From positions 1 to 64,000 of the forward strand of contig MEDY01000660.1 of NCBI GenBank assembly GCA_001724265.1: a stretch of 64,000 nucleotides of DNA, written 5' to 3'. This DNA is from Rhizaria sp. SCN 62-66 (lineage: Eukaryota). The position numbers and the translations under genes were made by a program. Under the pieces are notes generated by a model, which saw nothing but the letters and a program-made list of their open reading frames with translations, made no database searches and was not told where the DNA came from. The first letter of the stretch is position 1. Each line of letters begins with the position of its first letter. Of the stretch, positions 6,947 to 61,974 are shown in pieces.

Positions 6947-9900
6947 ATGGCGACGCTGTTCCAGAATGAGGATGCGTCGGCAGCTGTCGTAAAACAGGGC
7001 TGGTTGATCAAGCAGGGTGGCTCGCGTGGCTTCGGCTGGAAGACTTGGAAGCGCCGCTGGTTCGTCCTCACTCTCCAGGGCCTGAGCTACTACGAAAGCG
7101 AAGAGACCTACCGCGCCGGCCACCGCGAGCTTGGTTATCTACACGCCGACGCGACGTTTCACGCTTCGGCGACGCACCCCTCGCTTCCGCCTGACACGGC
7201 CGACGAGGTCCACCTCGTCTTCATCTGCTCCAATCGCACCTTGCTCGTGCGCGCCCGCTCCGACGCCCGCCGCGCGGACTGGCTCGCTGCCGTCGCTGCG
7301 CGCGCCGCCGACCTCCGCAAGCGCGCGCTCCGCCTCTCGGAGCCGTCCTACAACACCATCGACGCCGAGTCCGTTGCCGCAGCCGCTGCCGTGCTCGCCG
7401 CGGCCGCCGCAGCCGCCGGCCCCGCCACTCCGTCTCTCGCGCCCCACGCGAGCGCACACGCCAACTCGGCGCTAATGGGCTCGCCCTCGCGCCTGCGCCT
7501 GGGGTCGATGTTCGCGCCCCCGCAGCGCGGCTACCAACCCTCGCCGTCCTTCACCGCCGCGCCCGCGCCCGTGCACGGTCCCGTGGTCGCGTCCTCGGCG
7601 GCGGCCTACTACGCGCACCTGCTCCCTCAGCAGCAGCTCACGCACTCGCAGTCACTCGTACAGAGCCACCAGCAGCTCGCGCAGACGCAGTCGCAGTGGG
7701 CGCTCGGCCGCAACGCCGCGCCGTCCTTCACGCCGTTGATGCTGGCGCCGCTCAACGCGGTCGCGCCCGGTGCGCCAGTGGCCGTCACCGCTTCAGCCTC
7801 GTCGTCGACGCCGCTGTTTGGCCCCGGGCTGCCCCCCGTCGCTCCCGGCACCGCGCCCGGACGCCTCAGCGCCTCGGCCGCGCGCCCACCCGCCGGCTCG
7901 ATTAGTGCCGCGCTTGTGGGCTCTGGCGCTGCCGCTGGGGGCGCTCTGCAGCTGCCCCCGCAGCACCCGCACCAACAGCAACAGCATGTGCGCGCGCGCA
8001 ATGCGAGCACCATGTGCATTACATCGCCAGTGCCACCGCCCCCGCCCGGGCCTGTGTCTGCGGCAGCGCAGCAGGGCGCGGCTGCGTCCGCTTCACGCGC
8101 GCCGCAGCCGCCGCCGCGGCCGGCGTACGCGCTCGCCCAGATGCAGCAGCACCAGCACATGCAGACGCAGACGCAGACGCAGACGGTGCCCTCGCTGGTG
8201 ACGATGGGCCGGCCGGGCTCCCGCTCGCACTCGCGCGCCGACCCGCCCATCTCGCTGACGGCGGCCGCGGCCGCCGCTGCCGCAGCTGCCGCCGCCGAGG
8301 CCGCTATGGCCGCCGCTGCGGCCGCGACGGAAGCCGGCCTCGACTTCGACAGCGTGAGCGATGATAGCGATAGCGCTGACGAAGGCGACGGTGGCGACTG
8401 CGACGACGCCTGCGATGCTGACGGCGACGGCGACATTGATGACGGTGAGATGTCTGACGACGGCGCCGCGGCTCATGCCAACGCCGACGCTGCTAACGCC
8501 GGGCTCAGTGCTGCGCCTGCGCCATCGGCGACGCTGACGGGCACGCGCGTCACTTCAGGGCAGCGTGTCGGCGGCTGCCACAGCGGGCTTGCAGTGAGCA
8601 GCACAAGAGACGACGACGGCAGCGAGTGCGCCAACGCGGCGACCGCGGGCGACTAGTCCGTCTCCGGCGCGGGCTTTGGCGTAAGTCGCGAACCCAGCGT
8701 CTGCGACACTGCGGCCGTGGCCTCGCCCGGCGCCGACGCGAGCGAAGGGGACGCGCACTCGCCCTCTCTTGCCGCTGCGACTGCATCGTCTTCCTTCGGC
8801 TCCGCAGCTGCTGCTGCTGCAAATGCGCCGGCCACTGCAGCGAACGCGGCACGGCCGCGCACGCACTCGCAGCAGGCGCAGGCGCCGACGGCCGCGCAGA
8901 CGCACGCGCAGGCTCGCGCGCAGGCCCGCTGCAGCGTCGTGGCACTCTCGCCCGCCTCCGTCGGTGGCGCGGCAGCCGCAGCAGCCGCCGCAGCCGCGAC
9001 CGCCGCAATGAGCGCCGCAGTGAGCGCGGACCAGAGCGGGCACGGCTACTACGCGAGCGGCGTGGCGGGCTCGCGGCTGAGCGCGACGTCGAGCCTGGCG
9101 CCCAGCTGGAGCACCGCCGCGGGGCTGCCGACGCTGGCGCCAGCGACCACGGCGCCGCCGCCGACGCTGCCGCACGCGGGGGGCTCGCCCGCGCCGTCGC
9201 ACGCGCACTCGAACACGCACTCGTTCGCGCCTACGCTCGCCGACACCGTCGCGGACACTGTGGCGACCGAGACTGCCGCAGACGCCGCCGTGGCCGCTGG
9301 CGCTGACGCAGACACGCTGTCGGCGCTGCCGTCTGCGGCGGCGCTGCCGTCCGCGGTGACGCTGCGGCCCTCGTCGCGCCAGTCCGTGCTGCACGCGCCG
9401 CACCCGCACCAGCACCCCGCGCTCGCGCCGCGCCAGTCGGTCACGCGCCGCTCCGTGCTGCGCTCCGCGTCGCGCGCCTCGGTCACCGCCACGCCCGGCC
9501 TCAGCGGCACCGGCTCCGGCGCCGCCTCCAAGCGCGGCTCAATCTCGTCCCGCCTGTCCGTGGTGGGCGCCGCGCCGTCGCCGTCGCCGCTGCAGACGCG
9601 GTCGTCGCGCGCGTCGGTCGCGCTGGCGGCCCCGCGGCTTGCATCGCTGTCACTGTGCTACGCGGGCGCCGAGGCCGTGCGTGAGCTGCTCGACGACGAG
9701 GCCGCCGCGCGCGCGCTCGCTCTGCGCGCCATGGAGGCCGTCGCGGAGCCCGCTGCCGCCGACGATAGCTCTGCCGCTGATGTTCCTGTCGCGGATGCAA
9801 ACGCAAACTCTGCTCGCGACAGCGCGACAGAGCGGCAGCAACAGAAGGTGTTCACGCGCACTCGCGGCAGCAGCGCTGATGCTACAGTGCAGCCCCTCAA

Positions 9901-12900
9901 CGTTGCCGCCTCCGACGCCGCCGCTGCCACTGCGACGACGTCGCCGACGTCTGCGACTGCCGCCTCGTTCGCGAGTGCGCTCGCGACTGTGAACGCGCAG
10001 CCCCCGCGCGTGGGCCCGCCCCCGGTGCCGGCGCGCCCTGGCATCTTGCCGCCGCCTCCGCCGCAGCCCCCAGCGCCCCTGTCTCAGCCGCAGTCGATCA
10101 ACCAGCCGCTGCCCGCGCCGCCGCTGACGACTGTGTTTTCGTCCCCCAGCGGCGCTGGCCCGGCTGCGCTCTCCGTGAACCCCGCGAACCCGCCGCCGCC
10201 GCTGCTGCCGGTGCCGTCAATGGGTCAGTGCCCCACCGCCTCGGTCACCGCCTCGGTCACCGGCGCTGGCGCTGGCACTGGCACTGGTACGGGCACTGGA
10301 GGCACACCAGTGGGCACGCCCAGCGGCTCTGTGGCCGCCGCGGCTGCCTTCTTTGGCCCCGCGAAGCAGCGCAGCGCCGCGGCTGTGGCCTCATTCTTCA
10401 CGCCCGCGTCGACCTCTGCGACGCCCGCGGCCTCCGCTGCAGGCAGCGCGTCCGCGACGACGCCGCCGGCCTCCGCTATGACTCCGCCCTCGACTGCGAC
10501 TGCCGCGGCCGCGATGGCTAGCCCCGGGACGCCGGCGATACCATCCAACCGCGCGGCCGGGTATTCGCCGGCGCTCTTTTTCACCCGCGCTGTCTCTGGG
10601 GCATTTGCGCCCGTCGCGCCGCTCAACTCGACCGCCGCTGGCGCTAGCGCTGGCACGGCCGCTGGCGCAGCGCAAGGCGCTGCGGCCTCGCCGGGCGCTG
10701 TCAACGGTACCGGCGCTGGCGCGGCTGCCGGTGGGAGCCCCGGCACTCAGTCGCGCCGTGCAGCGCGCGGCGGCGGCGGCGCGTTTGCACCTGTGCTGTC
10801 GCCAGCGACTACTGTGAGCACTGCGCCTCAGCACCAGGTCTCGTTACTCGACGCCGCCGCGGCCCACGACGACGCCGCCGCGACCGCCGCCGCCGCTGCC
10901 GCGGGTGACACGGCTGCGCGGGGCGCCGACGCGAGCCCTGGTGCGACGGCCGCTGTTTCCCCTGCTGCCGGCGCGGGCGGCACCTCAGCTGCTGCCGGCG
11001 ACGACTGCGCGAGCCCGTGGGACGACGCCGCGATGGGCCTACCCGCGCTGCCTGCGGACCAGGGCCGGTTCCACGCCACGTCGCTGCACGAGTCGTACGT
11101 GTACCACTGCGCTGGGCAGCCCGGCGACGAGGACGGGCTCGGCGCCGCGCCGCGCTTCGCCAAGACGCGCGTGCGCTACGCAGTGCTCTTCGCCAACACG
11201 CTCGAGCTCTACGACGGGCACTACAGCCGCAAGCCTGAGCTGTCGCTGCCACTCTCCCTCGCGGCCAGCGCCGCACCCGCCGCGGCCTGCGTGTGGCCCA
11301 GCGCCGCCGCGGGCGCCGCCGCGCCGCGCTGCCCGACTCTGACGTCGGCCGCGGCGCGCACGGCGCACCGCTCGCTGTTCCTCTGCGTGTCCCCGCCGCG
11401 CCCGGACGCTAACTCGGCCGCCGACGCGCCGTTGCCGCCGCTGATGATGCTGACTGCCAACGCGGCGGCGCGCGACGCTTGGTTCGTGGCGCTGCGCTCC
11501 ACGCGCCTCGTGCACGTCACGCTGCCGCCCGCGCCCGTGCCCTCGACCGCCGCGGCCTCGGCGCTCGCGGCCGCCGCAGTCGCCATGGGCGGCGGCCGCG
11601 GCGGCGCGTCGTTCACCACGGCTTACTCGGAGACGGACAACTCGCCGCTGGTCACGCCCTCGCTCGGCCCCGGCGGCGCGCGCAGCGGCAGTGGCAGTTT
11701 CGTCGGCGGCGGCGCGGGGGGCAGCACTCACTCGCCCGCGGGCGCTGGCGCGCCGCTCTCGGTGGCGAGCTCGCAGACCTCGGTGCCCTCGATGCCGCCG
11801 CTCATCGGCCTCGCGCGCTCCCCGCTCTGGGCGCCGCCCGGCTCGCCCTTTGTCGCCGCCGCTGCAACGGGCTCGGCCACGGCGCTCGCTGCGCCCGCCG
11901 CGGCCGTGAGCGGTGCTGGCTACCCCATGACGCCCGGCACCGTGCATCTGGCCAACTCGGCCGTCGCCACGGCGGCGGGGCGGACCCCCGTGGTCATGCC
12001 CAGCCTCGGCGCCGTGCCGCCCTCCCCAGGGAGCTGGCTCTCGCCCGCCCAGCAGCAGCAGCAGGCGCTGTCCGCCGCGCCGGCGCCCGAGGCGCCGTGT
12101 CTACTGCCGTTCCTCCGCACGCGCGCGGTGCGCGTGGCGCTCGTGACGCTCGCGCAGCGCGCGGCCGACGCGGACGCCGAGGCCGTCGCTGCGGCCAACG
12201 CCGCCGTTGCCGCCTCAAATGCCGCTGCGACCGAGGCCGCTGTCGACGCCGCCGCTGCGGCGGAGGCGGCGGGCACTGCTCCCGCCGCGGTACCGGTGTC
12301 GCCGGTGCTGATGCCAGAGGTCGTGTCGGCGCTGCCCGCGCAGTTCGTGCACAAGGCGCACATGCTGGCGCTGCTCTCGGTAGCGATGCCGCCCGTGCTG
12401 CTGCGCGCGCCCACGGCGGCCAGCGCGGCGGCCGTAGGCGCGGCGTCCACGGCGGCGCTGCCGTCGCTACTAGTCGGGCTGGCGGCCCACGAGGCGCACC
12501 TGCGGCCGCACGCGCCGCTGCCCGTCGCGCTGCCCGCGGCCGTTGCGCGCCCGCTCGCCGCCGTCGTCACCGCGCAGCGCGCCGCGCTGGCCGCCCGCGC
12601 CGCGACGCCGCTGGCGACCGTGGCCGCGCAGCCCGCGCTGCCCGTGGCGCTGGCGCCGCTCTCGTTGCTGCCCGCGGCGCGCGCGCTGTCGGTGGAGCTG
12701 GCGCCGCTGCTGCTGCAGCCGCTGGCGCGCCTGCTGGTCGACCCCGCGCGCGCGGCCGAAATCGATGACATGGTGGCCGCGGCTGACGCCGCCGCGCCCA
12801 CCTTCGCCTCCGTCGGCGGCGCTGGCCTCGGGCTCGCGCTGGGCATGGGGCCCGGCCGGCAGGGGCCCGACTCGGCGGTGTCGTTGCCGCTGCTGCTGTT

Positions 12901-15900
12901 GCGCCTTACAAGCCCTGAGGCCGGGCAGACAGACCCCGCCGCGCACGCCGCGGCGCGCCGCGCGTTCCTGCTCTTCCGCCCGCAGTTTGCGTCCCCGCGC
13001 GCGGTGCTGGCACTGCTGCTGCCGCTCATCGGCACGCACGCGGCCGCGCCCCACGCGCTGGGCCCCGACGGCGCCGCGCTGGTGCCCGTTGCGGCCGACG
13101 TCAGCGCGCCCGTCCCCACGCCCGCGGCGACGCGCGCGCTGGCGGCGTCGCTGCTGCACGACTGGCTCGCGCTGCACCCCGAGGACTTCAGCGAGCTGGG
13201 CGGCCGCCAGGCCGTGCTCGCCGCGTCCGCCGCCGTTACCGTCGCGCTGCCGCCCGCGTCCGCCGCGGCCGCGGCGGCCGTGCCCGCGCCCGCGCCCGCG
13301 CCCGGCGGCGCGCTGCCGCCCGCCGACCTGACGGCACTGCTGGGCTACATGCGCGCAGCCAACGCGGCCGCGAGCCGCGAGCTCTGCGGCGCGCCCACGC
13401 TGCCCGCCGATGTGCGCGAGCGCGCGCGCGGGCACGAGCTGCCCGAGGCCGCGCGCTCGATGGCCTACGATGATGCCGCGCTCGCCGCCGAGGACGCCGC
13501 CGCCGCCGCGGCCGCCGCGCTCGAGACCGCTGCGACTGGCGCTGCCGGTGGTCGCTCTGCTGCGGGCTTGGCGCCGCCGGTGGCCGCGACGCCGGAGCAC
13601 GCAGGCGCGCTTGAGGTGGCCGTGGCAGAGCTGCGGTGTGCGCTCGCGCTCATGCTGCGGCTGTCCAAGACCACGATGACCGAAATCGAGGCCGTCGTCG
13701 TGAACACGCCCTTCGACAACACCGCGCACGCGAGCAGTAAGCGGCTCACTGGCGCGGCGGCCGCGATGGCGCCTCCGACGGCATCGCTGCCGTCGATCAC
13801 CAGCAGCAACGCGCCGTCGGTGGCGCCCCTCGCGGTCAGCCCCGGCGCCGACCGCGCCAGCGCCCACGACGGCGACAGCGCCGACGGCGACGGCGACGGC
13901 GACGGCGGTGGCCACAACAACGTCGCCGCGCCCATGCCGATCCACGCCCCGTCCCCGCGCGCGCTCACCAGCACCGAGCAGCACAAGTCACGCCGCAGCT
14001 CCAAGCGCCCCTCAGCCGCGGGCGGCGCTGCGGGCGGCGAGTCCGCGGGCAGTGGCGGCCGCCAGCGCAGCTCGACGACTGCGACCTTGCCGCCCGATGC
14101 ACTCACGGTCGAGCGCGCCGCCGCCGCGGCCGCAGCCGCAGCCGCCGCGGACCCCGCCGGCCGCGAGCGCGCCGCCACGGCCTCGGCCATGCTCGCGGGC
14201 CCCGCCTCGGCGCGCTCCGCCGTCGGCTCTGGTTCCGGCTCTGGTTCCGGCAGTGACGAGCTGTCGCCGGTCGGTCTGGAACTGGGTCCTGCCGCCGCAG
14301 TGCTGCTGGGGTCCCCTGAGGTGGAGACTGAGGAGGCCCCGTCGCCGCTCGCGCCCGTCGCGGAGGCGTCCGCTGAGGCTGAGGCTGAGGCTGAAGCTTC
14401 CGCTGCCGCTGCCGCTGCCGCTGCTGCTGACCTTGACGCGCGCGTGCGCGCCGAGTCGGAGCACGGTCCGATCCGGCTGGGCCGCGTGCTGCCGCCGCCG
14501 CCGCCGCCGCTGCCGCCCGTCACGGCCGCGATGCGCGACAGACGCCCGCCAAACGTGCAGGTGCCGTTGCCGGTACCGCTGTCGGCCGACGCCGCCGCGA
14601 GCGCTGCGGCCGCGGCGCTGGGCAGCGCGGGCGCGCCGTCGCCCAACTCGGTCGCGCGCACCGCCGCGCTCTTCTCGTTCGGCGCCACCGCCGTGGGGGC
14701 CGCGCCCGCGTCGCCCGGGACCGCTGGGACCGCGGCGGCGGCGGCTGCTGCGACGGCGGCGGCCGCGGCGCAGAGAGAGGTCGCCGCTGCGCGCAGCTGC
14801 GTCATCTCGGCCGCGGACGGCGGCGTGTCGGTCGCGGCGCGGCGCGCGGCGCTGGAGGCGCGGCTGGCACAACACCGCGCCGCGCAGGCCGTGCTGGACG
14901 GCGGCATGCGCGCGCGCGGTAGACCGGCATTCGCGGCGCAGCTGCCGCCGCCGACGCCGCCCTCGGTCGTGTCAGTCGGCACTGGGCCCGCCAGCGCGCC
15001 AGAGCACGGACTGCCCGGCTCGCCTGCCAAGGACAACGCTGCACACAACAACGATAAGTCTGCGGCTGGCTCGCCTGCGCGTGAGGCTGCGACGACGGCA
15101 CCGGAGTCGACGGTGTCGCCTGTCTTCGATCGTGCCGCAGACATCCCCGTCACTCCTGCTACTGCTGCTGGCGCCTCAACTGCGACGGCGGTGGCGAACC
15201 AGCCGCCCACCGAGTCGAGACGCGGGTGCGAGTGGTCCTCGCGCGCGTCGCTGCCCGCTCTGTCGCCCTCCCCCGCGCCCTCGCACGCCTCGACCGCGGC
15301 CACTAGCGGCGGCGGCGGCGGCAACGCGGGGCACAAGCGCAGCAGTCGGCTGCCCGCGGCGCTGGCCGCGACGCGCGACGCCGCCGCCGCCGCCACGGCC
15401 GCCGCGGCCAGCCTGCCCGACGACGACACCAGCGACGAACACTCGCCCGGCTCCAGCCCCACTGCTGCTGCTGCCGCTGCCGCTGCTGCGGCGGCGGCCG
15501 CGAGTAAGCCCGGCACCAACGACAGCGCCGTCAACGGCGGCAGCGACCGCCTTTTTGCGGAAGCGTCCTCCCCATCGCCCGCACCCTCGGCCTCGGGCTC
15601 CGCTGGCGCAGGCTCCGCTGGCGCCTCTGCTGCGGCCTCGGCCGCAGCGTCAGCCTCCGTCTCGGCGCCCGCGTCCTCCGGTGCCGCCGTCTCCGGCTCT
15701 GCCAACGCCGTCTCCCCGAAAACGGCCGTCTCGCCCTCCGCGGCGGCGGCGGCCGGCTTCGGCGCGGTGTCCGCCGCGGCCGTGCGCGCGCGCGCGCCCC
15801 ACGCGGCGCTGCCGGCGCTGCAGTCGGTGGCGCCGCGCGCGCTGGCCGTGGAGCTCACACGGCTCGACCACGCGCTGCTGCTGCGGCTGCGCGCGCGCGA

Positions 15901-17737
15901 GTTCGTCGGCTGCGCCTGGGTCAAGAACCCCCCCACGGCGCCCGTGCTGACCGCGCTTACTGAGCTCTTCAACACGCGCTCCTTCTGGGTCACCGCGGAG
16001 ATCCTCCTGGCCGCCCCGGTCCCCGCCGCGCCCGCCGCGCCCGTGGCGCCCGCCGTGCCTGCGCTTCCGCCCGTCCCGACGCTGCCCGCGGCGCCCGTGG
16101 CGCCCGTGCCGCCGCAAATCCCTGCCGTCGTCCCACTCCCGCTCCCGCTGCCTCTGCCTCTGCCGCTGTCGCAAGGCGGTCTCGCCGGCGCCGGCGCTGG
16201 CGCTGGCGTTGGCCTCGGCGGCGGGGACGCGGCGACTGCGACGGCGACCGCGGCGGCGACGTTGCTGCCGGGCTCGCTCGCGCCCCACCCCACGCTGGCC
16301 TCCGTCCCGACCCTGGCCCACGGAAGTCACAACGCGCCCGCCAACAGGCTCAGCCCGTATCCCAACATGCTCTCGGCGGCTGCTGCGACCACCGCGACGA
16401 CTGGGGGCGCGCATGGTGTGCTGTCGGTCTCGCCTGCCCCCACGACCTCGCCCGCGCCGACCAGCTTCACCGACGCCAGCGCCGGCGCCAGCGCCAGCGC
16501 CAGCGTCAACTCGAGCGCGCAGGGCGCCGCGGGGGCGCCGTCGCAGCCGGTCTCCCCGAGCGGCTCCGCGGCCGCGCCCGCGTCGGTGCTCGCTGCGACG
16601 ACGCTGTCATGCGCGCCTTCGGCCTCGGGCGCGGGCTCTGATGCCGCCGTCGCGTCCTTCTTCACCCCTGCCATCCATGCCACCGCTTCTCCCGCCACCG
16701 CTGCCGCGCCTGCCGGCCCGGGACTGGTGCGCGCGCCCTCGTTCACGTCTCCGTCGCTCACCTCCACTGCGGCGCCGTCGGCCGTAACGTCGCCCTCGTG
16801 CGCGCTCTCCGCCGCGTCGGGCCTCAGCTCGCCCCTGGCTGCCACGCCGGTTACGGCCGCTGCTGCGCAGACTGCCGCCGCGCCCACCGCCGCGACGACC
16901 AGCGCGTCCGCTGCAACTGCTGCCGCCGCCGCCGCCGCTGCTGCTGCTGCCGCTGCCGCCGCTGCGGGCGCGATGACCGAGTACGCCGCGCCGCGCGTAG
17001 CCGCGCTGCGGTACTCGATCAGCGTGCTAGTGGAGCTGCTGCGGCTGCGCAACTACTTCTCCGCCTTCGCCGTGGGTGCCGCGCTGTCCGCGATCCCCGT
17101 CTACCGTCTGCGCCAGCTCTGGGCGCGCCTCCCCAGCTCCTCCGAGGCCTCGTACGCGCAGGCGCAGGCGCTGGTCACGGTGATGCGCAACTTCGCGCCC
17201 TACCGGCGCGCTGCGCGCGCCGCGCTGGGGCAGCCGCTGGTGCCGCACATCGCGCTGCTGTGCAATGACTGCTTCCTCATCCAGGAGGCCGCCGACGCGC
17301 GCACGGTCTTCCACAAGGCCGACGCCGCGGCGGCCGCGGCAGCAGCGGCGGACGCGGCGGCGGCGGCGGTCGCGGCGGTCGCGGCGGCTGATGCAGCGGA
17401 GACGCCCAAGCAGACCCATGCAACGGGCACGCCTGCGTCCGACACGGACTCGTCCGCGACTGCAGCTTTAACGAACGCCGATTCCTCAGCGACTTCTGCT
17501 GTTGCAGAGCCCCCCGTTGAGTTCCCCGCAGTGACTGATGTCGTGCGCCTGGCGCCGTGCATGCGGCAGTGGCGCGAGCTGGAGCCCTTGCTACTGTGCC
17601 AGCGGCAGCGCTACCACCTGCCTGAGGCCGATTTCGCGGCGGCGATGCTCGTGGCGCGCTGCCAGGAGCGCGCGCTGAGCGAGGACGAGCTCTGGGAGGT
17701 TTCGTGCCGTATCAAGCCCGATACACGCGGGGATTAA
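6947..17737 (+). CDS. Giant Ras guanine-nucleotide exchange factor (PH, second divergent PH, REM, split CDC25 domain), about 3596 codons, with one in-frame TAG at 8654-8656
   Basis: ORFs 6947-8656 and 8717-17737 share a frame and only TAG 8654 separates them. PH: VVKQGWLIKQGG..WKTWKRRWFVL..RRADWLAAV. PH2: KTRVRYAVLFANTLELYD..ARDAWFVAL. REM: RAFLLFRPQFASPRAVL..LLHDWLALHPEDF. CDC25: PRALAVELTRLDH..LTELFNTRSFWVTAEIL..LRNYFSAFAVGAALSAIPVYRL..NFAPYR..PLVPHIALL. Stop is TAA. Confidence 0.75.
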
Positions 17738-21009: not shown

Positions 21010-22995
21010 TTACGCGCGGATGGGCTTGGTGTTCTCCTCGAGCCACTTGGCGGCGAGCGCGTCGCCGGCGACCAGCGGGCCTACGACGGCCTTGCACTCG
21101 GCGTGGTAGCTGTCGAGGTACTTGATGTCGTCCGCGGAGAGCAGCTCGACGTCGATGAGGCGGCGGTCCACGGGCACGAGCGTGAGGTTCTCGAAGCCTA
21201 AGTACTTGTCCGAGTGCTCAGCAGCCTTGCGGGTGCAGAAGACGAGGTTCTCAATGCGGATGCCGAACTCGCCGTCGTGGTAGTAGCCGGGCTCGTTAGA
21301 GAGCACCATGCCGGGCACGATGGGCGTGGTGCACATCGACCCGCCGCGGTTCATCATCGCGATACCCTGGGGCCCCTCGTGCACGTTGAGGTAGGAGCCG
21401 ACGCCATGGCCCGTGCCGTGGAGGAAGTTGAGCCCGTCGCGCCAAAGGAACTGGCGCGCAAGCGTGTCGAGCGCGGGGCCCATGGTGTTGGGCGGGAAGA
21501 TCTGCGCCGCGAGCGAGATGTGGCCCTGCAGCACGCGCGTGTTGGCGCGGCGCTGGAAGCGCGACGGCGCGCCGTCCGTCTCGGCGTCGCCGACCGTGGC
21601 GTCGGCGCCGGGGCGCGCGAGGAACACAGTGCGCGTGATGTCGGTGGTACCATCGAGGTACTGGCCTCCGGAGTCGAGCAAGAAGACCTTGCCCGTGGTC
21701 AGCGGCGACGAGGTCGTCGCACTGGGCGAGTAGTGGATCACGGCACCGTTGGGGCCGATGGAGCTGATGGTGTCAAACGACAGGCCAACGCATGACGCGC
21801 ACTCGCGGCGGAACGCCTCGAGCTTCTCCGCAGCCGAGTACTCGGTGAGCGGCGACTTAGCGATGACGTCGGCGGGGTCGGTGGCCTTGGGTAGCGAGGG
21901 CAGCTGCGCCTCGAGCCAGGCGAGGAAGCGGCACACGGCGACGGCATCGTTGATGTGCGCGCGCTTCATGCCCTCGAGCTCGGCCTCGTTCTTGATCGCC
22001 TTGGCGAGCGTGATGGGCGTCGCGTCCTTGTTGACCAGCGCGGCCTCGGTGCCCGCGGCGGCCTTGCTCACCAGCGCGCGGTCCACCGCCACCGTCGTCG
22101 TCTTGGCGTTGGTCCAGATCTTGTACTGGGCCTCGCCGGCGGCCAGACGCGCGGCGCAGACGCCCGAGAGCGTCTCCATGGCGGCGAGCGCGGCGCCGTA
22201 GGGCGCGACGGCCACACTGGCCTCGGCGAGGTGCGCGGCGACGTCGGGCGCAAACTTGTTCTCGTCGACGAAGAGCGTGGCGGCGTCAGCGGTGACGACA
22301 GCGTAGGACATGAACACCGGGTTGTAGTCGATGTCAGAGCCGCGGAGGTTATAGAGCCAGGCGACCTCGTCCAGCGCAGAGACGACGACGGCGAAGGCGC
22401 CCTGCTTGGCCATCTCCTCGCGGAGCTTGGCGAGCTTGTCGGCAACGGACTGGCCGGCGAAGGCGACGGGGTGCGTCTTGATCACGCCCGCGGGCGCGGC
22501 GGGGCGTACCTCGGTCTCACCGTCGATCTGGCCGGCTGCGGTGGGCCAGATGGCGTCGACGAGGTTGTCCGCGATCGGGGTCATCGAGACCTTCTTGGGC
22601 TGCAGCGCCTTGTCGTAGCTCTCGAGCTGCGCGAGCGAGACGAGGAAGGGGTCGAAACCGACCTTGCCCGAGGCGGTGACGTTGTCGGCGAGCCACTTGT
22701 GGATCGAAGGCACGCCGTCGGTGCCGTCCTTCATCAGCTGCCAGCACGACGCGTCGAGCTGGCGCTCGGCCTGCAGGAAGTAGCGGCCGTCAGTCCACAG
22801 CAGCGCCGCGGTGGGGGTCACCACGGCCGTGCCCGCGGAGCCGTCGAAGCCGGAGAGGAAGTCGCGGCGCTTATCGTACAGCGCGGTGTACTCCGACTGG
22901 TGGGCGTCGGCGGAAGGGATGATGTACGCGTCGATCGCGTGCTTGCTCAGCAGCGTGCGGATGCGTGCGAGACGCGCAGCGGCAGGAGTGGCCAT
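21010..22995 (-). CDS. XPNPEP1: Xaa-Pro aminopeptidase (aminopeptidase P, M24B)
   Basis: DAYIIPSADAHQSEY, FLSGFDGSAG, LWTDGRYFLQA, LDSGGQYLDGTTDITRT, HGTGHGVGSYLNVHEGP, SNEPGYYHDGEFGIRIEN. The ATG directly follows CACAG, so an upstream exon is possible. Stop is TAA. Confidence 0.95.
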   Translation of the reverse strand: MATPAAARLARIRTLLSKHAIDAYIIPSADAHQSEYTALYDKRRDFLSGFDGSAGTAVVTPTAALLWTDGRYFLQAERQLDASCWQLMKDGTDGVPSIHKWLADNVTASGKVGFDPFLVSLAQLESYDKALQPKKVSMTPIADNLVDAIWPTAAGQIDGETEVRPAAPAGVIKTHPVAFAGQSVADKLAKLREEMAKQGAFAVVVSALDEVAWLYNLRGSDIDYNPVFMSYAVVTADAATLFVDENKFAPDVAAHLAEASVAVAPYGAALAAMETLSGVCAARLAAGEAQYKIWTNAKTTTVAVDRALVSKAAAGTEAALVNKDATPITLAKAIKNEAELEGMKRAHINDAVAVCRFLAWLEAQLPSLPKATDPADVIAKSPLTEYSAAEKLEAFRRECASCVGLSFDTISSIGPNGAVIHYSPSATTSSPLTTGKVFLLDSGGQYLDGTTDITRTVFLARPGADATVGDAETDGAPSRFQRRANTRVLQGHISLAAQIFPPNTMGPALDTLARQFLWRDGLNFLHGTGHGVGSYLNVHEGPQGIAMMNRGGSMCTTPIVPGMVLSNEPGYYHDGEFGIRIENLVFCTRKAAEHSDKYLGFENLTLVPVDRRLIDVELLSADDIKYLDSYHAECKAVVGPLVAGDALAAKWLEENTKPIRA

Positions 22996-23606
22996 CTGTG
23001 TTGTCCATGGGAAACAGTGGGGATGCAGATATAGTTGAGTAGAGTCAAGGCGGACGGAGCAAAACGGAGCCAAGAGAGCATCGGCCGAAACAGAGGTCGA
23101 GTGGGTGTTTGAAAAAGAGGATAAAAAGAGTGAAAGTCGCCAAGTGAGTGAGATAGAAGTTGATTCTGGTTGAAAACTATGGTCTGTGCGTGAATCATGA
23201 TACCACATTCACTTCCAGGGCCGTGAATGATGTCAACAAAGGAGATCTAGGATGGTGCGTCGTCTCTGATGGCCGGATCAAGGAACCGACGCCATCACGG
23301 CGTCATACACCATGATGCACGTTTTCTCCAGCAGTAAAAATAATATACACACACAAGAAACAATGTGGCCACTCACGAAACATCAAGTAAATCTACTTTG
23401 GATTCGTGTTTCGTGTGTATGTTCTTTTCCAGTTGCATCCGGAGTCTGGTTATGGACCGAAGGCAGAACGACCACAAACGCAATGGAAGTGTGCGCAGAT
23501 CTATGAAAATAGGATACAGGCAGTGTATTCATGGCCCCTTCAGGCCCAGCGCAAAGCACCTTTTCGTACATAGAATAAATCACATTTTTTTAGTCAATCC
23601 CCCTTT

Positions 23607-54900: not shown

Positions 54901-57402
54901 CCAGCGGGATCAGCCGCAGAGGGACGCCCTCGGCGACGACGCCCGCCGTGGCGGCGCCGGCGCCTACCTCACCCGCGGGCGCGAGCGCGAAAAGCTGCAC
55001 GTGGCCGCCGCGGCCCACGGCCAGCAGCGGGTGCTGCGCCAGCGCCGTCTCCACCGTAAGTGCGGCCACGTCGTCGGCGGACTGCGCCATCGGCACCGGC
55101 ACGGGCGCCGTGGGAGCTGCCGCGGGCGCGGCGGCAAAGGGCGCGAAGAAGGAGGCGAACGCGGAGCTCGCGGAGGTGGACGGACTGGGGTTGCTCCCGC
55201 CGGGGCCCGCGGGGCCGCCGGGAGGGGGTGGCGAGCGCAGGCCTGAGGCCGCGGCAGCCGCGGCGGCGCGGGATGCGGCGGCCGTGGTGGCGGCGTCCGC
55301 GCCGGCGGCGGCGGCAGCGGCGCCCGCGGCGGCCCCCGCGGCGGCGGCCTCCTTGTCGCGCGCGCGCACGGGTCGCCATGCTAAGGAGACGGGGGATCCG
55401 GGACGCGCGGCGGCGTCGCGCGGCACGCGGCAGATGATCTTGACGACAGGCTCGAGCGCGATCAGCAGCGCCATCGTTTCGGTCGCGATCGCAACCAGCG
55501 CGAAGGCGTCGGACGCGTGCGGCGCCGCGGGGGACGCGACAAGCGCGTCCGCGGCGAGCACGTAGCCGGCCTTGCCTTGGATGAGGCACTGATACTGGTG
55601 GGTCCAGGAGAAGGCGAAGAAGGACTTGCTGGCCGTGACCGCCGAGACGGAGCCCTCTGCGTTGACGGCGATGAAATCGACCTTGCCACGCTTGCCACAG
55701 ACGACAGCCGTCACCGGCGAAGTGCCCAGCTCGGTGACCACGCGCAGCAGGGACTTGCCGGCGATGTCCCACAGCACGATGTGGCCGTTCTGGTGGCCCG
55801 CCAGCACGTAGTCGCCGTCAGGAGTGACCGTGAGCGCCGTCACGGCGCCACGCGCGGCGCCGTCGGGCGTGTTGGGCCGCTGCAGCACCGCAGTGACGGT
55901 CTGGAAGTGGTCAAACACGAGCATATGCCCGCGCGACGTGCCGGCCACGATGACGTGCGCGTGCGTCGCCACGCACGTCACGACACCCAGCGCCGCCTTG
56001 GCGCGCTCCAGCTCCGCCGACGACCGGTCCAGCCGCGCCAGCTTGAGAACCGAGACGCCGACGCGCGCGCCGCCCGTGGCGCCGCGGCGGCGCGTCACCG
56101 GCGTGAACGCCGTCGCGGGCGCAGGCGCGGCAGCGGCGCGCACCTCGCGCAGAGCGGCCGCAGCAAGTGTCAGCGGCGTGGGCAGCGTGGCCAGCAGCGC
56201 CTCAACGTCCTCGTCCTCGCGGAGGATCGACGACACGGTGGCCGCGTTGGCGGCGGCGGCGGCGGCAGCGGCGGCGGCCGCGGCCGCGGTGGTCGCAGCG
56301 TTGGTGCTGCTGCTGAGTGCGGACACCGCGGTGGGCGGGCTTAGCGGCAGCGGACCCGACGCGGCCTCGGCCGCAATGGCGTCCGCGGCAGTGGCGCCCG
56401 TGCTGGCTCCCACACCGGCAGCGGCAGTGGCAGCAGCAGCAGCAGCGGCTGCAGCAGGGGCGCCGGTTCTAGCGCCAGCGGCGTTGATGTGAGCGTTTCT
56501 ACCGGCACCGGCGCCGGGGACAACGGGTGAGGTAAGGAACGCGTCGACCGACATCGACGGAGTGCGCTCGCCGAGCGGAGCGGGCCGCCATGAAACCGGC
56601 ACGGACGCGGCGGCCGCGGCGGCCACGGCGGCGGCGGCGTCCGAGGGGTACTTATCCCCGCCGTCGTCTTCGCCGTCGTTGTCGCCGTTCGCGTCCCCAT
56701 CAGCGGCGCTGCTGCTGTTGAGAATGGCGGAGACCGAGACGCCGCGCGGCAGAGGCAGATTGGCTGAGCCGGCGTCGGAGTCTGCGTCTGCGTCTGCGTC
56801 CCCGTCATCACCGTCATTGCCGCCGTCGCCGTCGCCGTCGTCGTCGTCATCGCCGGGGCGCGCGCGGGGACCGGGAATTACAAGCGCGGTGTTGGCGGCG
56901 GCACCGGTGCCGCCGGGCGCGGCTGCGGCTGCGTGGGCCGCAGTGCTGGTCGTGGTTGTGATAGTTGTGATAGTGGTGATGGTGGGGACTTCGGCGCCGT
57001 GGAAGTTGTCGTCGTCCTCGTCGTCGGTCAGGGCGGCGGCGCGCTCAGACTGGGCATGCAGCGCGGACTGCAAGTCACCGGGCTGTGTGTCGCAAAAAGG
57101 GTCGCAGACAAGAAAGGGAGAGAGTGAGAGAGCATAAGCAGGAGATAAGGAGCGAGCGAAGCAGGCAGCAGAGGCGTTAGGCTAAAGCGGAAGACGCGCA
57201 GAGAGGTGGGAAGGCAAAGTATAGCAGACGCAAATAAACGCGGAGATTAAGAGGAGGAAGGAAAACGTACGAGTTCGTCTGCGTCGTCTTCGGCAAGAAT
57301 GGCGTTGACGTCGAGCCCGGCGAGCGCGGTGCCATCGACAGCGGTGTCGTCGAGCTCATGTTCGGCCAAGATGGCGTTCAGATCCTCCTGTGAAGAAGAC
57401 AT
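48965..57402 (-). CDS. VPS8: Vacuolar protein sorting-associated protein 8 (CORVET subunit); exons 57402-57271 and 57082-48965, about 2749 aa
   Basis: WD40 region (IVAGTSRGHMLVFD, AVTALTVTPDGDYVLAGHQNGHIVLWDI), Vps8-like WIDALALTLDFYDG, clathrin-like repeat (FVRLLCVHAPAKVL..ASAYLLERTGD), ERLWFALLD and a C-terminal RING (CQGC..CGHSWHADC..CPLC). Stop is TAA. Confidence 0.88.
57083..57270 (-). other. Intron of VPS8 (phase 0)
   Basis: CTC|GTACGT donor, long pyrimidine tract, CACAG acceptor; joins exon MSSSQEDLNAILAEHEL...DEL in frame. Confidence 0.85.
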
Positions 57403-58013
57403 GATGTTGCGCGCGCAGAAAAGCGGGCCGGCGGAACGCCGAGAAGGGCAGACAGGCTGGGGAAAAGCGTTGGGAAGGTGGAAATGAAAGGGGCCTCACC
57501 ACTGGCAAAGATATGTGATGCTGGGAGTGGGCGAGTCGAGCGGGTCACGAGGGAGCCCCGAGCGAGGTCTATGATCCGTGTGGAGAAATGCGAATAGAAT
57601 AACCAAAAGTGTCTGTAGTGTGAGTATATGTTCATTGAATTATAGCCCTTGCAGACGCAGTTAAGGCATGGATCGTCTTCTTTTTCTACCTCTGACAAGA
57701 GGTCGAAGAAGGTAAGCCGTCCGTCTGGCGGAGCCCGAGTGGTGGCTGGTGGGGAGTAGAGTGTAGAGAGCTTCGAATAGCAGAGCTTGTCTGCAAAGAC
57801 TCCGTTGTTAGCATTATAACTGTTTGATTGGGGTCTTTTTTGTTCTTTTCGATTGTTGTAGCTTATTATTTTTCTCTCAAATCTTATGCATCCCATGTCG
57901 CCTGCTCCCCTCTGCGCCCGTCTAGTGCCCAACCCTGACAGCCGTCGCACCTCGCAGCACACCCCGCGCTACCTTTTACTCAATCCCAGCTTTTCCAGCG
58001 CTCCGCCTGTGGC

Positions 58014-61000
58014 ATGCAGACGTGGTTTACAGACGCGCAGGCGCAGCGCGCACTGCTGCGGCACGCGTCTTATCTCCGGCCCGCTGCCGCCGCCGCGCCG
58101 GGACTGATTGTGTTACGCGAGGACGTCTCCGCGGTGCGCCGCGCTGTCCAGCCCTGGCTCGCTGCGGCCGCGCCTAACGTGCACAACCTCACGCACCTCG
58201 CGCCTGTTGCGGCTGCAGCGCTTGCTGTGTTGCGTGAGACATCAGCACCGCGCCCGAGCTGGCTGCAGCTTTGCGTAACACTGCTTGCGCCACCCATACA
58301 CACCACAGATGCTCACGCAGGAACAGACGTCAACTCAAGCACTGGCGCTAGAAGTGTCACTGGGGTTACTGTGTGCGACGATAAGGCTCTTACAGCGTGG
58401 CTGGCGCGTTTCCGCTTCGTTGAGCTTTTCGCAGAGAGCGACGAAGCCCCCGCGCTCGCCGCTGTCGTCGCACTTAATTCCACACCTGAGACTACCGATG
58501 ATGCCACTAGTGTCTGCGCTGGTTCAGTGCCACGCGCGGTGTTTTGTGGCGAATTTCCTTTGTCTATGGACGAGACTAAGGCCGAGATGCGGCCTGTCCG
58601 CATGGAGAGCTGGGAGAAGCTATTCCTCAGTAGTAGCAATTCTGCCTCGAACTTTACTGTAGCGTCTACGTCGTCCTCTGAGACTGCGGATGCGCACGCC
58701 AGTGACATTGACGACGACAATGATGCTGAGGATAATGAGGATGACGGCAATGCAGCCAAGTATGCGAACACCGATCTAGCTGACCTCGACAGCACCCTAT
58801 ACGACGGCATCGGTGGCGACATTGATGACCACGATGCGAGCGACGACGCCGGCACTCAACAGGGTAACGACACCGCAGCCCCCGTTGGCTCCACTGCGCG
58901 TTCTCTCTCACGCGTCAGTGTGCTTACTGAGCGTAACCTGCGGCTTGCGCGCGGAGTGTCGTTTCTGCCGGGGCATGCATTCGCGGGTGGCGGCCGCTTC
59001 GACTCGACGCTTGCCATTGCAACGAACAACACCAAAGCAGAACCCCCGTTTACTGACAACAAGGTCGGGGCTACAGCGAGTAACGACAACGCTGCCATAG
59101 CTCTACTTGCGTCTCTGACCTCAACCGATATCTGTCAGCACGACTCAAGTCCCGCTGCGCCCAGCACTGGCTCTGCCCTCAGCGCTGCTCTTAGTACTGG
59201 TGGACCCGTGGTGCCCGCGCGGTTCTCCTTCGTGGAGCTCTTTGCTGGCGTTGGCGGCTTCCGCCTCGGGCTGCAGGCGCTGGGCGGCGTGTGCGTGGCT
59301 GCGTGCGAGATCGAGCACAACGCACGCGCAGCGTACGCGGCCGCGCACGGCGCTGCCGCGACGGCCGAGGCCGTGAACAGCCAGAGCGATCGGTGGATGG
59401 AGACGCCGCTCGAGAGCGAAATGCGGGGCATTGCGCAAACTTTGTCTGCTCCGATGCACGACACGTACGGCGGCAACGGCACTAATGGCAAAAGCACTGT
59501 TTCACCGTCAGCCAGCTCAGTGATTGACGCCTCGTTCATGTCCCTCTCTGCGCTGAAGCGAGCCATTACGGACAACATCGCTCTCCGCACCGCTGCCAAC
59601 AACGCGCAGAGCGATGCCAACGGCACTGTGAGCGCCACTGAGAGCGCTCGTGGTGGCGAGAGCACGCTGGTTCCGGTGCCGGCGCTGTTGTTTCCCGACG
59701 TGACCGCGCTGCCCGGCGCGTGGCTGCCCCCGCACGCCGTGCTCACCGCCGGCTTCCCCTGCCAGCCCTTCTCGCGGCTCGGCGCGCAGCCCGGTATGGG
59801 GGACCGCAAGAAGGGGGCGCTCTTCCTCCACGTTGCGCGGCTTGCCGCGGAGTGTAAGCCGCCCGTGGTGCTGCTGGAGAACGTGCCCGGTCTCGTCACC
59901 ATCGACAACTGCAAGGTAAGCGCTCTATCGCATTTCTCTTTCACTTCGAACGTGGTTTTGTTGCGTATGTTACACAGTTTATTTGTTTTCAAACTCACTG
60001 ATTTAAACCTCTTATCTTTGAATGAATTGATCTTGTTTGCCGTCTCTCACTAGACGCTGCTTACGGTGCTGCGCGCCCTGACGCGCGCTGGGTACTCGGT
60101 CGCGTACCGTGTCGCAGACGCCCAGGCCCTTGTGCCTCAAGTCCGGTACGGCTACACTCTGTGGAAAACAAAGACAATGTGTCCCGAATCATTTGAGCAC
60201 GACCTGTGTCTCCGAACTCGCGTGCTCTTATTCTCTCTCACTGTTTGTACATTTGCCTTTTCCGATCCTTCCATAGCCGTCGCATCTACATTGTCGGTCT
60301 GCGCACCGACCTTCTGCCCTCTCGCCACAACATCACTAAGGGCACTGGCAACGCGGAAAGCGCGGACAGCACTGCTCTCGACGACCTCGCCCGCTACCGC
60401 TTCCCCGCTCTGCCCGCGCTTGCCCGCCCCATCGGCTCGTCGCTCGCGCCCCAGCGCGCGCTGCAGCCGCGCCACATTGTGCCCCTGCCGCGCTGGCGCG
60501 CGTTGACCGCGCGCTCGCCCTTCGTCACCACGCCGGCGTGGAAGCTAAGCCGCCCCGCGGAGCCCGCGGGCACGCTTGTGACTGGGTACCGCCGCAGCTA
60601 CGCGTTCTCGGCTCAGCTCGTGCCGCTGGACAAAGAGAGCGTGACTGAGATGACGCCGGCGGCGCGGGACGCTCTGCAGCTGACAGTCGGCTCACAGTCT
60701 CAGGTCCAGCTGGTCGAAACCCAGTCGTAGTCGCCGTTGCCTGCGGACTGGGCGGACGCCGACGCGCGCGCGGAGGCCGCTAGCGGCTTGACTTCTCTGC
60801 GCACGCAGCACCCGCACCTGCCGTGGGGCGTGCGGTGGTTTACTGAGCGCGAGTGTGCGCGCATTATGGGGTTCCCTGAGGCCATGGCGCTGCCGGGCAT
60901 GCCGGTGGCCACGACGACTCCTGCTCAAGACTCTGGAGCGAGTGCTAGTGGCGAGAGTGAGAGAGACGGTGAGCGCGGGCCGACGGTCAAGCGGGCCCGG

Positions 61001-61540
61001 CAAGCGCCTGCCGCTGCGTCTGCTACTGACGCTGCAGTCGCGACTGGAACTGCACAGGCAGATGCTGCTGCGGCTGACAATAGCACCAACAGCAAGAGCT
61101 CTAGCGCAAACAGCAAGAACAACAAGCTCAAGACCACCACGGCTAACACTGCTGTCAAGAGCAAGACCACTGTCGCTGGCACTGGCTCTGACTCTGGCGC
61201 CGACGCCGACTCCGAGGCGGCCCTCGGCAGTGTGGCATATGGTCTACTCGGCAACGCCGTGTGTCCGCCCGTCATTGCCGCGCTGGGCGGCACCGTGCTC
61301 GCGCTGCTGTGGGGCCGTCGCTCTCTTGCTGAGGCCGCAGAGAGTGGCAACAGCGACGGCACGGAGCCGCTAACGGTGACCGTGGGCATGAGTATCGAGG
61401 ACGCGGCGGCCGCGGGGCGCACTGCGGCAGTGAAGCTGGCGCTCGCGGCCGCGCAAGCGGGGGAGCGCGAGAGCATTGTCGCGCGACTGGCAGAGGTCGT
61501 GCAACTGGAGCGGCTGCAGCAGCAACCGAAGCAGCAGTGA
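58014..61540 (+). CDS. C5 cytosine DNA methyltransferase (Dcm/DNMT6-like, no DNMT1/3 accessory domains recognised); exons 58014-59915, 60054-60145 and 60277-61540, with an in-frame TAG at 60728-60730
   Basis: Motifs in canonical order: I FSFVELFAGVGGF, II ACEIE, IV LTAGFPCQPFS, VI LLENVPGL, VIII VPQVRRRIYIVG (formed by splicing), IX RWFTERECARIMGFP, X AYGLLGNAVCPP. The start is uncertain because an upstream exon is possible. Stop is TGA. Confidence 0.85.
59916..60053 (+). other. Intron of the DNA methyltransferase gene (phase 0)
   Basis: AAG|GTAAGC donor, T-rich body, CACTAG acceptor. Confidence 0.85.
60146..60276 (+). other. Intron of the DNA methyltransferase gene (phase 2)
   Basis: CG|GTACGG ... 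CCATAG|C; removal rebuilds motif VIII PQVRRRIYIVG. Confidence 0.88.
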
Positions 61541-61974
61541 GTTCTTTGGTCTGCGCATACTTTTGCGTGCAGATGAGGTATCCGTTACACAGAACACCGA
61601 AGAACTGCATCAACCTGGATATAACGTGGTCTATAGCAGTAAAGCTTACATAGCACTTGAAATTACAAATAAACTAGTTCTATTTATATAATACTTCAAT
61701 TTTTTGTGGACGGGAGCTTAGAAAACAAGTGTATGGCACGCAAACTGGGGATTCCAGAGAGCTTGTTGCTGCGCGTGTCCCAAGATTGTGGTCGCGTCAT
61801 TTGCCTCTCGAATGTTGGAGTTTCGTCAAGCTTTACCGCGAATATCCGTCGTCAGCTGGCCCCATGCTTTTTTTATGAGCCTTAATTGAAGATTTGTACT
61901 TGCTCATATTAACAATTTTTCGCCTTATGTGTGTCTTGTAGGTAACCTGTGTCAGGTTCAGATCTTGGTCGGCA

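Follow-up and report, generated by a model that had tools for sequence, protein, structure and literature searches.

In this 64,000-nucleotide stretch of contig MEDY01000660.1 (Rhizaria sp. SCN 62-66, assembly GCA_001724265.1; hereafter the window), a gene predicted to encode an HhaI-type (bacterial-type) C5 cytosine methyltransferase is crossed by an in-frame TAG at position 60728, and a second TAG, new here, lies deep in frame at 8654, where it joins a PH and a RasGEF open reading frame (ORF). We tentatively favor the reading that UAG is an inefficient stop in this organism, whether through reassignment or through strong read-through, so that the methyltransferase would be made whole. The original prediction had set translation through the methyltransferase TAG beside a recent nonsense allele. 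These remain the two leading readings; the second in-frame TAG and the lack of TAG terminators tilt the window-wide evidence toward translation through UAG, and they do not settle the choice.

That an in-frame TAG separates motifs IX and X from the rest of the methyltransferase was borne out by direct reading, with GAA ACC CAG TCG TAG TCG CCG TTG at 60713-60736. The same frame then runs on to a TGA at 61538-61540, as predicted, but the predicted count of 270 more codons includes that stop and there are 269 sense codons after the TAG. Motifs IX (RWFTERECARIMGFPE) and X (GLLGNAVCPPVIAAL) are indeed intact downstream, and direct reading agrees that termination at the TAG would cut off both; a C-terminal helix conserved family-wide would be lost as well. 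In C5 methyltransferases such as M.HhaI, the S-adenosylmethionine site includes motif X. Under the standard code, the TAG parts motifs I to VIII and the target recognition domain (TRD) from motifs IX and X, and the enzyme is not encoded by a single uninterrupted reading frame.

We compared the site with contigs of four runs (X3 to X6), of which X3 and X4 come from two other studies, X4 is dated 2025, and X6 is a poly(A) metatranscriptome. A sense codon in reads, which the original prediction had named as an outcome that would overturn it, was looked for in these runs, and the contigs from X3 and X4 both show TAG. The X3 contig (4635 nt) covers 57900-61244 and the X4 contig (219 nt) covers 60551-60769, with at least 39 nt on each side of the TAG, and neither differs from the window at any position. 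The site is thus covered by two of the four runs, X5 and X6 having no cover there. We treat X4 as DNA because a neighboring X4 contig runs unspliced through both introns of the gene. In addition, the ORF that ends at the TAG (P0130) is on record from five contigs, compared with six for a neighboring gene. Because the site is identical in the contigs of two other studies and P0130 occurs on five contigs, the TAG at 60728 is a real, stable feature and not an assembly error; a sequencing or assembly error, for which we found no supporting point, is barely credible.

Table 1. Positions of the features discussed, numbered within the window; a minus sign after a terminator position marks the minus strand.
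Feature	Position	Strand	Details
Methyltransferase gene	58014-59915, 60054-60145, 60277-61540	+	Three exons; ATG 58014, TGA 61538-61540
Exon 1	58014-59915	+	N-terminal extension, motifs I, IV and VI
Motif I FVELFAGVGGFRLG	59229-59270	+	Exon 1, direct reading
Motif IV GFPCQPFS	59751-59774	+	Exon 1, direct reading
Motif VI LLENVPGLV	59871-59897	+	Exon 1, direct reading
Intron 1	59916-60053	+	138 nt, GTAAGC...CACTAG, T-rich, GC ~0.37
Exon 2	60054-60145	+	92 nt, stops inside motif VIII (..VPQV + CG)
Intron 2	60146-60276	+	131 nt, GTACGG...CCATAG, GC ~0.47
Exon 3	60277-61540	+	Rest of motif VIII (R RRIYIVG), TRD block, linker, motifs IX and X, C-terminal helix, TGA
TRD block AGTLVTGYRRSYAFSAQLVP	60566-60625	+	Exon 3
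Variable low-complexity linker, TRD to motif IX	60626-60832	+	69 codons counting the TAG; alignment A1
In-frame TAG	60728-60730	+	Exon 3, context CAG TCG TAG TCG, +4 base T
Motif IX RWFTERECARIMGFPE	60833-60880	+	Exon 3, intact, 3' of the TAG
Motif X GLLGNAVCPPVIAAL	61241-61285	+	Exon 3, intact, 3' of the TAG
PH-RasGEF gene	6947-17737	+	PH part 6947-8653 (569 codons), RasGEF part 8657-17734 (3026 codons), same frame, ends TAA
Second in-frame TAG	8654-8656	+	Context GGC GAC TAG TCC GTC, +4 base T; this assembly only
VPS8 first intron	57084-57270	-	ATG 57402, short first exon; starts GTACGT, pyrimidine-rich, ~187 nt; acceptor ~57084 (ACACAG), approximate
Terminators	4936, 5308-, 17735, 19939, 21012-, 23609-, 27992-, 40376, 43211, 43724-, 47338-, 48967-, 61538

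Alignment with eight relatives (A1) places the TAG between the TRD block and motif IX. In six of the eight, this interval holds an unalignable low-complexity linker of about 25-75 residues; in the other two (P0004 and P0169) it is almost absent. Because relatives translate a variable linker here, the sequence of the stretch is unconstrained, and whichever residue stood at the TAG would be accepted. By its sequence, the linker around the TAG is coding. The in-frame proportion of G and C at third codon positions (GC3) is 0.83 before the TAG and 0.85 after it, and local GC is 0.64-0.74, compared with ~0.37 and ~0.47 in the two introns, which agrees with the original description of two T-rich introns and a coding-like sequence upstream of the TAG. 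The gene shows no second lesion, with the six motifs, the TRD block and the C-terminal helix all intact, and by its sequence it appears to be an intact gene that looks expressed. The first ATG 3' of the TAG falls inside motif IX, which makes a separate C-terminal subunit, and hence a two-subunit enzyme, unlikely.

The TAG could also be removed or changed in the RNA, either as the end of a short in-frame intron or by editing (UAG to UGG, or U-to-C giving CAG), which we consider unlikely. The original prediction had raised a mini-intron ending at the TAG as an outcome that would undo it. One can be drawn on paper: both confirmed methyltransferase introns end in TAG (CACTAG and CCATAG), and in-frame GT..TAG candidates start at GT 60704, 60698 and 60641 (27, 33 and 90 nt), while the RasGEF gene offers one more, of 30 nt (8627-8656). 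However, a GT at codon position 1 occurs within 10 codons by chance about half the time, and the candidate 5' sites (GTCCAG, GTCTCA, GTGACT and GTGCGC) are unlike the real ones (GTAAGC, GTACGG and GTACGT). The real introns, of 131, 138 and ~187 nt, are pyrimidine-rich, and the two that were measured have a GC of 0.37-0.47, whereas the candidates are 27-90 nt long with coding-like GC and a GC3 of ~0.8; those at 60728 lack a pyrimidine tract. Relatives, moreover, translate a linker of similar length.

Editing has a precedent in Fusarium and Neurospora, where, according to PMC10776026 and PMC11156358, genes that are otherwise intact carry a genomic in-frame UAG and the full-length protein needs a post-transcriptional step, as it might here. 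This fungal adenosine-to-inosine (A-to-I) editing is described as preferring U at −1 and as acting often at UAG, restoring genes with premature stops (PMC11156358, PMC10776026). A U at −1 is trivially present at both of our sites, and the TAG at 8654 lies in a 7-nt hairpin loop of the minimum-energy fold. The TAG at 60728, however, lies in a stem, and neither hairpin is significant (z −0.99 and −0.95), so that the loop preference, seen at one of the two TAGs, is not clearly matched. The fungal system is also described as restricted to filamentous ascomycetes and specific to the sexual stage, whereas the host of the window is not grouped with Fungi in our single aminopeptidase tree.

The second in-frame TAG lies between a PH part and a RasGEF part that share one frame. 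The 3026-codon ORF behind it contains a RasGEF domain (E=1.8e-23). GC across the TAG is 0.71-0.73, whereas all 12 of the 12 ordinary intergenic spacers, 367-1068 nt long, have a GC of 0.41-0.49. Because GC does not fall and no spacer intervenes, and because 3026 codons with the RasGEF domain stand open behind it, the TAG at 8654 is not a gene boundary. A search of the protein collection with the exact 569-aa PH ORF gave no match, which is uninformative. Within 8650-8658, the TAG lies in a palindrome, ACTAGT.

The two contexts also bear on ribosomal hopping, in which a peptidyl-tRNA-Ser would leave TCG, skip the TAG and re-pair on the next TCG. Bacteria are known to make short hops over stops flanked by matched codons, and the methyltransferase TAG has the same take-off and landing codon on either side (TCG TAG TCG). 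At the second site (GAC TAG TCC) the landing codon does not match, so hopping cannot account for both, and efficient hops require extra signals, of which scans for 3' structure and Rfam elements found none. We regard hopping as very improbable.

We then took a census of stop codons in every coding-like ORF of the window that was 300 codons or longer, reading through one stop codon at a time. The only deep in-frame stops were the two TAGs; no deep TGA or TAA was found in any coding frame. The other four TAGs, like all TGAs and TAAs of the scanned ORFs, stand at an ORF end, either as the terminator or in the 5' or 3' flank. The 13 terminators, a small sample, comprise nine TGA, four TAA and no TAG. 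If TAG normally makes up 20-30% of terminators, the chance of finding none among 13 is, by simple arithmetic, 0.055-0.010. The +4 base of the true terminators is a purine in 11 of 13 cases (G in nine), and both in-frame TAGs are followed by TC.

UAG-only nuclear codes that keep UAA and UGA as stops are described for the rhizarian exLh (UAG=Leu) and for Iotanema spirale (UAG=Gln) (PMC5304391), and UAG-only reassignment is described for phyllopharyngean ciliates (PMC11687900). The window resembles these in having in-frame UAG in otherwise intact genes and in terminating its genes only with UAA (four) and UGA (nine), UAG being absent from all 13 terminators. It differs in that UAG is frequent in those lineages and stands at conserved positions, whereas here there are two UAGs in a GC-rich genome, both in low-complexity linkers. 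What we see would therefore be at most an incipient or inefficient form of UAG-only reassignment. With these documented codes as precedent, the two premature stops in 14 genes, neither accompanied by a second lesion, and the 0 of 13 TAG terminators tilt toward decoding of UAG.

From the real and stable TAG at 60728, the coding linker, the second in-frame TAG and the lack of TAG terminators, we infer that ribosomes may pass the TAG. A suppressor tRNA would place an amino acid at UAG, in an early or inefficient UAG-only reassignment; alternatively, near-cognate read-through at UAG would be unusually strong. UAA and UGA would go on terminating translation. At 60728, the linker that tolerates any residue would allow a full-length enzyme with motifs I to X, and the PH-RasGEF gene would be read through the TAG at 8654 in the same way. 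The more specific proposal of an early, ambiguous reassignment in an uncultured lineage that is widespread in wastewater reactors, with UAG gone from gene ends and decoded inefficiently at a few tolerant sites, is possible, though on balance doubtful. Under that proposal, the GC-rich nuclear genome of this lineage would be in an "ambiguous intermediate" or "codon capture" state today.

Several observations weigh against decoding of UAG. The census sample is 14 genes, in which two in-frame TAGs occur among ~17,300 codons. With TAG as a neutral synonym of CAG, ~45 would be predicted from the TTG/CTG ratio (71/780) and the 491 CAG codons, and exLh has 384 in-frame UAGs in 71 genes (PMC5304391); these numbers speak against a mature UAG reassignment. 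Both TAGs lie in low-complexity, non-conserved stretches that cannot be aligned, unlike the many UAGs at conserved positions that a UAG-only code would show. No amino-acid identity can therefore be deduced from these sites, and such stretches are where a nonsense allele would least disturb the appearance of a reading frame. By the codon table, 73% of one-step nonsense opportunities (2420/3313) give TAG, so that both stops being TAG is weak evidence. Within the 64-kb window we found no tRNA gene and no Rfam element, and there was no significant RNA structure 3' of the TAGs (z −0.08 and −0.94). The TAG at 8654 is seen in this assembly alone. No RNA contig covers either TAG, and no RNA or protein evidence spans either one; near the methyltransferase gene, the X6 poly(A) contigs cover only 57900-58168, 59713-59866 and 61187-61590, which leaves out the TAG and both introns. 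A joint from 59751 to 61400 (GC..AG, in X3 only) was discounted, having one side of 21, which is too short, and the wrong ends.

The other leading explanation is that both TAGs are ordinary nonsense alleles, tolerated in a near-clonal lineage, and that the lack of TAG terminators is due to chance. The methyltransferase would then have become a pseudogene only very recently, or be a null allele that another copy masks, and the RasGEF protein would be truncated or re-initiated downstream. The extreme rarity of internal TAGs and the predominance of TAG among nonsense opportunities fit this explanation. CAGTCG and TAGTCG form a hexamer pair (60722-60733) in which C/T is the sole difference, and the TAG at 60728 belongs to its second unit; this hints at descent from CAG (Gln), and a simple C-to-T change would suffice. 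Because the population is near-invariant across runs (no differences in 3345 nt in X3, one in 1303 nt in X4), every run would display whatever allele the clone carries. Eukaryotes are described as often losing DNA methyltransferases (PMC9246332), and chance open frames of 183-219 codons occur in other frames of the same GC-rich stretch. Codon bias in the methyltransferase (57939-61540) is weaker than in every neighboring gene (GC3 0.67-0.79 compared with 0.83-0.93), which could also reflect a gene that is weakly expressed, under relaxed selection or more recently arrived. On the other side, two premature stops in 14 genes would be a high load for a free-living eukaryote, and neither gene has a second lesion even though 3026 codons stand open behind one of the stops. 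Conservation of motifs IX and X and of the C-terminal helix equals that of intact relatives, none of the 13 terminators is TAG, and no alternative allele is listed at 60728 in the two covering runs, although contigs drop minor variants. We consider nonsense alleles a real possibility, if a somewhat doubtful one.

The assignment of the methyltransferase rests on several lines of comparison. The exon 1 part (59199-59915) matches PF00145 at 100.6 bits (E=1.5e-28), the gathering cut-off being 22; the part 3' of the TAG alone reaches 20.1 bits, slightly below that cut-off, the match being motif IX. The nearest solved structure is M.HhaI (E=8e-19). Six C5 motifs, I (FxGxG), IV (PCQ), VI (ENV), VIII (QxRxR), IX (RE..G) and X (GNAV), stand in canonical order and align with the eight relatives. 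Motif VIII, located at 60132/60277, is split by intron 2. Removal of the introns rebuilds VLLENVPGLVTIDNCK/TLLTVLRAL..VPQVR/RRIYIVG (slashes at the junctions), which is collinear with P0131 and P0132; because splicing yields a sequence that matches these continuous relatives, we take the two introns to be real.

The motif order and the position of the TRD between motifs VIII and IX are those of bacterial C5 methyltransferases (PF00145, M.HhaI) and of their eukaryotic offshoots (such as P0002 and the environmental proteins P0131-P0137), and the gene shares with these relatives the TRD block AGTLxxSYR..SQFV and the motif IX RxxTERECARIMGFPE. It differs from them in its N-terminal extension of ~400 aa, three long low-complexity inserts, two spliceosomal introns and the in-frame TAG. 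By family description, it also resembles DNMT6 of microeukaryotes, which PMC9998398 describes as a stand-alone DNMT domain without chromatin-reading domains that is found in diverse protists.

The top named relative is a Chytriomyces hyalinus protein (P0002) at 25% identity, and environmental relatives reach 37-41%; homologue searches at two length settings and a representative search found none closer. The original prediction had also named related strains with CAG as a result that would overturn it; these searches turned up no such strain, all relatives of the gene being too distant. A search for the locus in JGI metagenomes and GTDB genomes found nothing, and a protein atlas search with the relative P0137 returned only generic bacterial and phage C5-methylase clusters. 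The N-terminal ~395-400 aa (58014-59198) have no Pfam match; P0002, P0004, P0137 and P0169 have in common a short conserved N-terminal segment, ..(A/V)I(I/V)xPK..(A/T)L..(K/R)xW.., which precedes the catalytic domain. Besides the linker, two more low-complexity inserts of ~120 aa each lie in the catalytic domain, between motifs I and IV (59300-59700) and between motifs IX and X (60900-61230). Ala/Ser/Asn/Asp-rich runs similar to these inserts also occur in the VPS8, RasGEF and 62090 genes.

The DNA of the window is eukaryotic, rich in GC and poor in introns, and it is also present in bioreactor, wastewater and activated-sludge runs; its host is an uncultured member of wastewater or bioreactor communities. 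For placement of the host we used its Xaa-Pro aminopeptidase (21010-23208, minus strand), whose environmental relatives show 76%, 69% and ~54% identity, while named matches reach at most ~46%. In a quick maximum-likelihood tree of this single gene, built with 45 of the 120 listed matches picked to span the named groups, the window protein falls inside a 100%-supported clade of ten environmental sequences (P0006-P0014 and P0017), joined with nine others. Fungi, animals, plants, amoebozoans and all other named groups sampled fall outside this clade, which also stands apart from Plasmodiophora, so that the lineage has no named member among the matches. A locus search with the aminopeptidase returned one 2.4-kb contig, which carries the 76% relative, and otherwise bacterial loci; that relative ends in TAA and has no in-frame TAG. 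An aphelid identity and code were considered and dropped, since TAA terminates four genes of the window whereas Amoeboaphelidium is described as reassigning both UAA and UAG (PMC5304391).

If both TAGs are plain nonsense alleles, the finding is an ordinary one, and the methyltransferase would have been caught just after its inactivation. If, instead, ribosomes of this organism read through UAG, its genes would be split or truncated by standard gene callers, as has already happened in P0130, P0001 and P0005. The lineage would then be a GC-rich, non-ciliate addition to the few eukaryotes that separate the meaning of UAG from that of UAA. Its rare UAGs would show the first steps of a reassignment, which have so far been mostly inferred and not observed.

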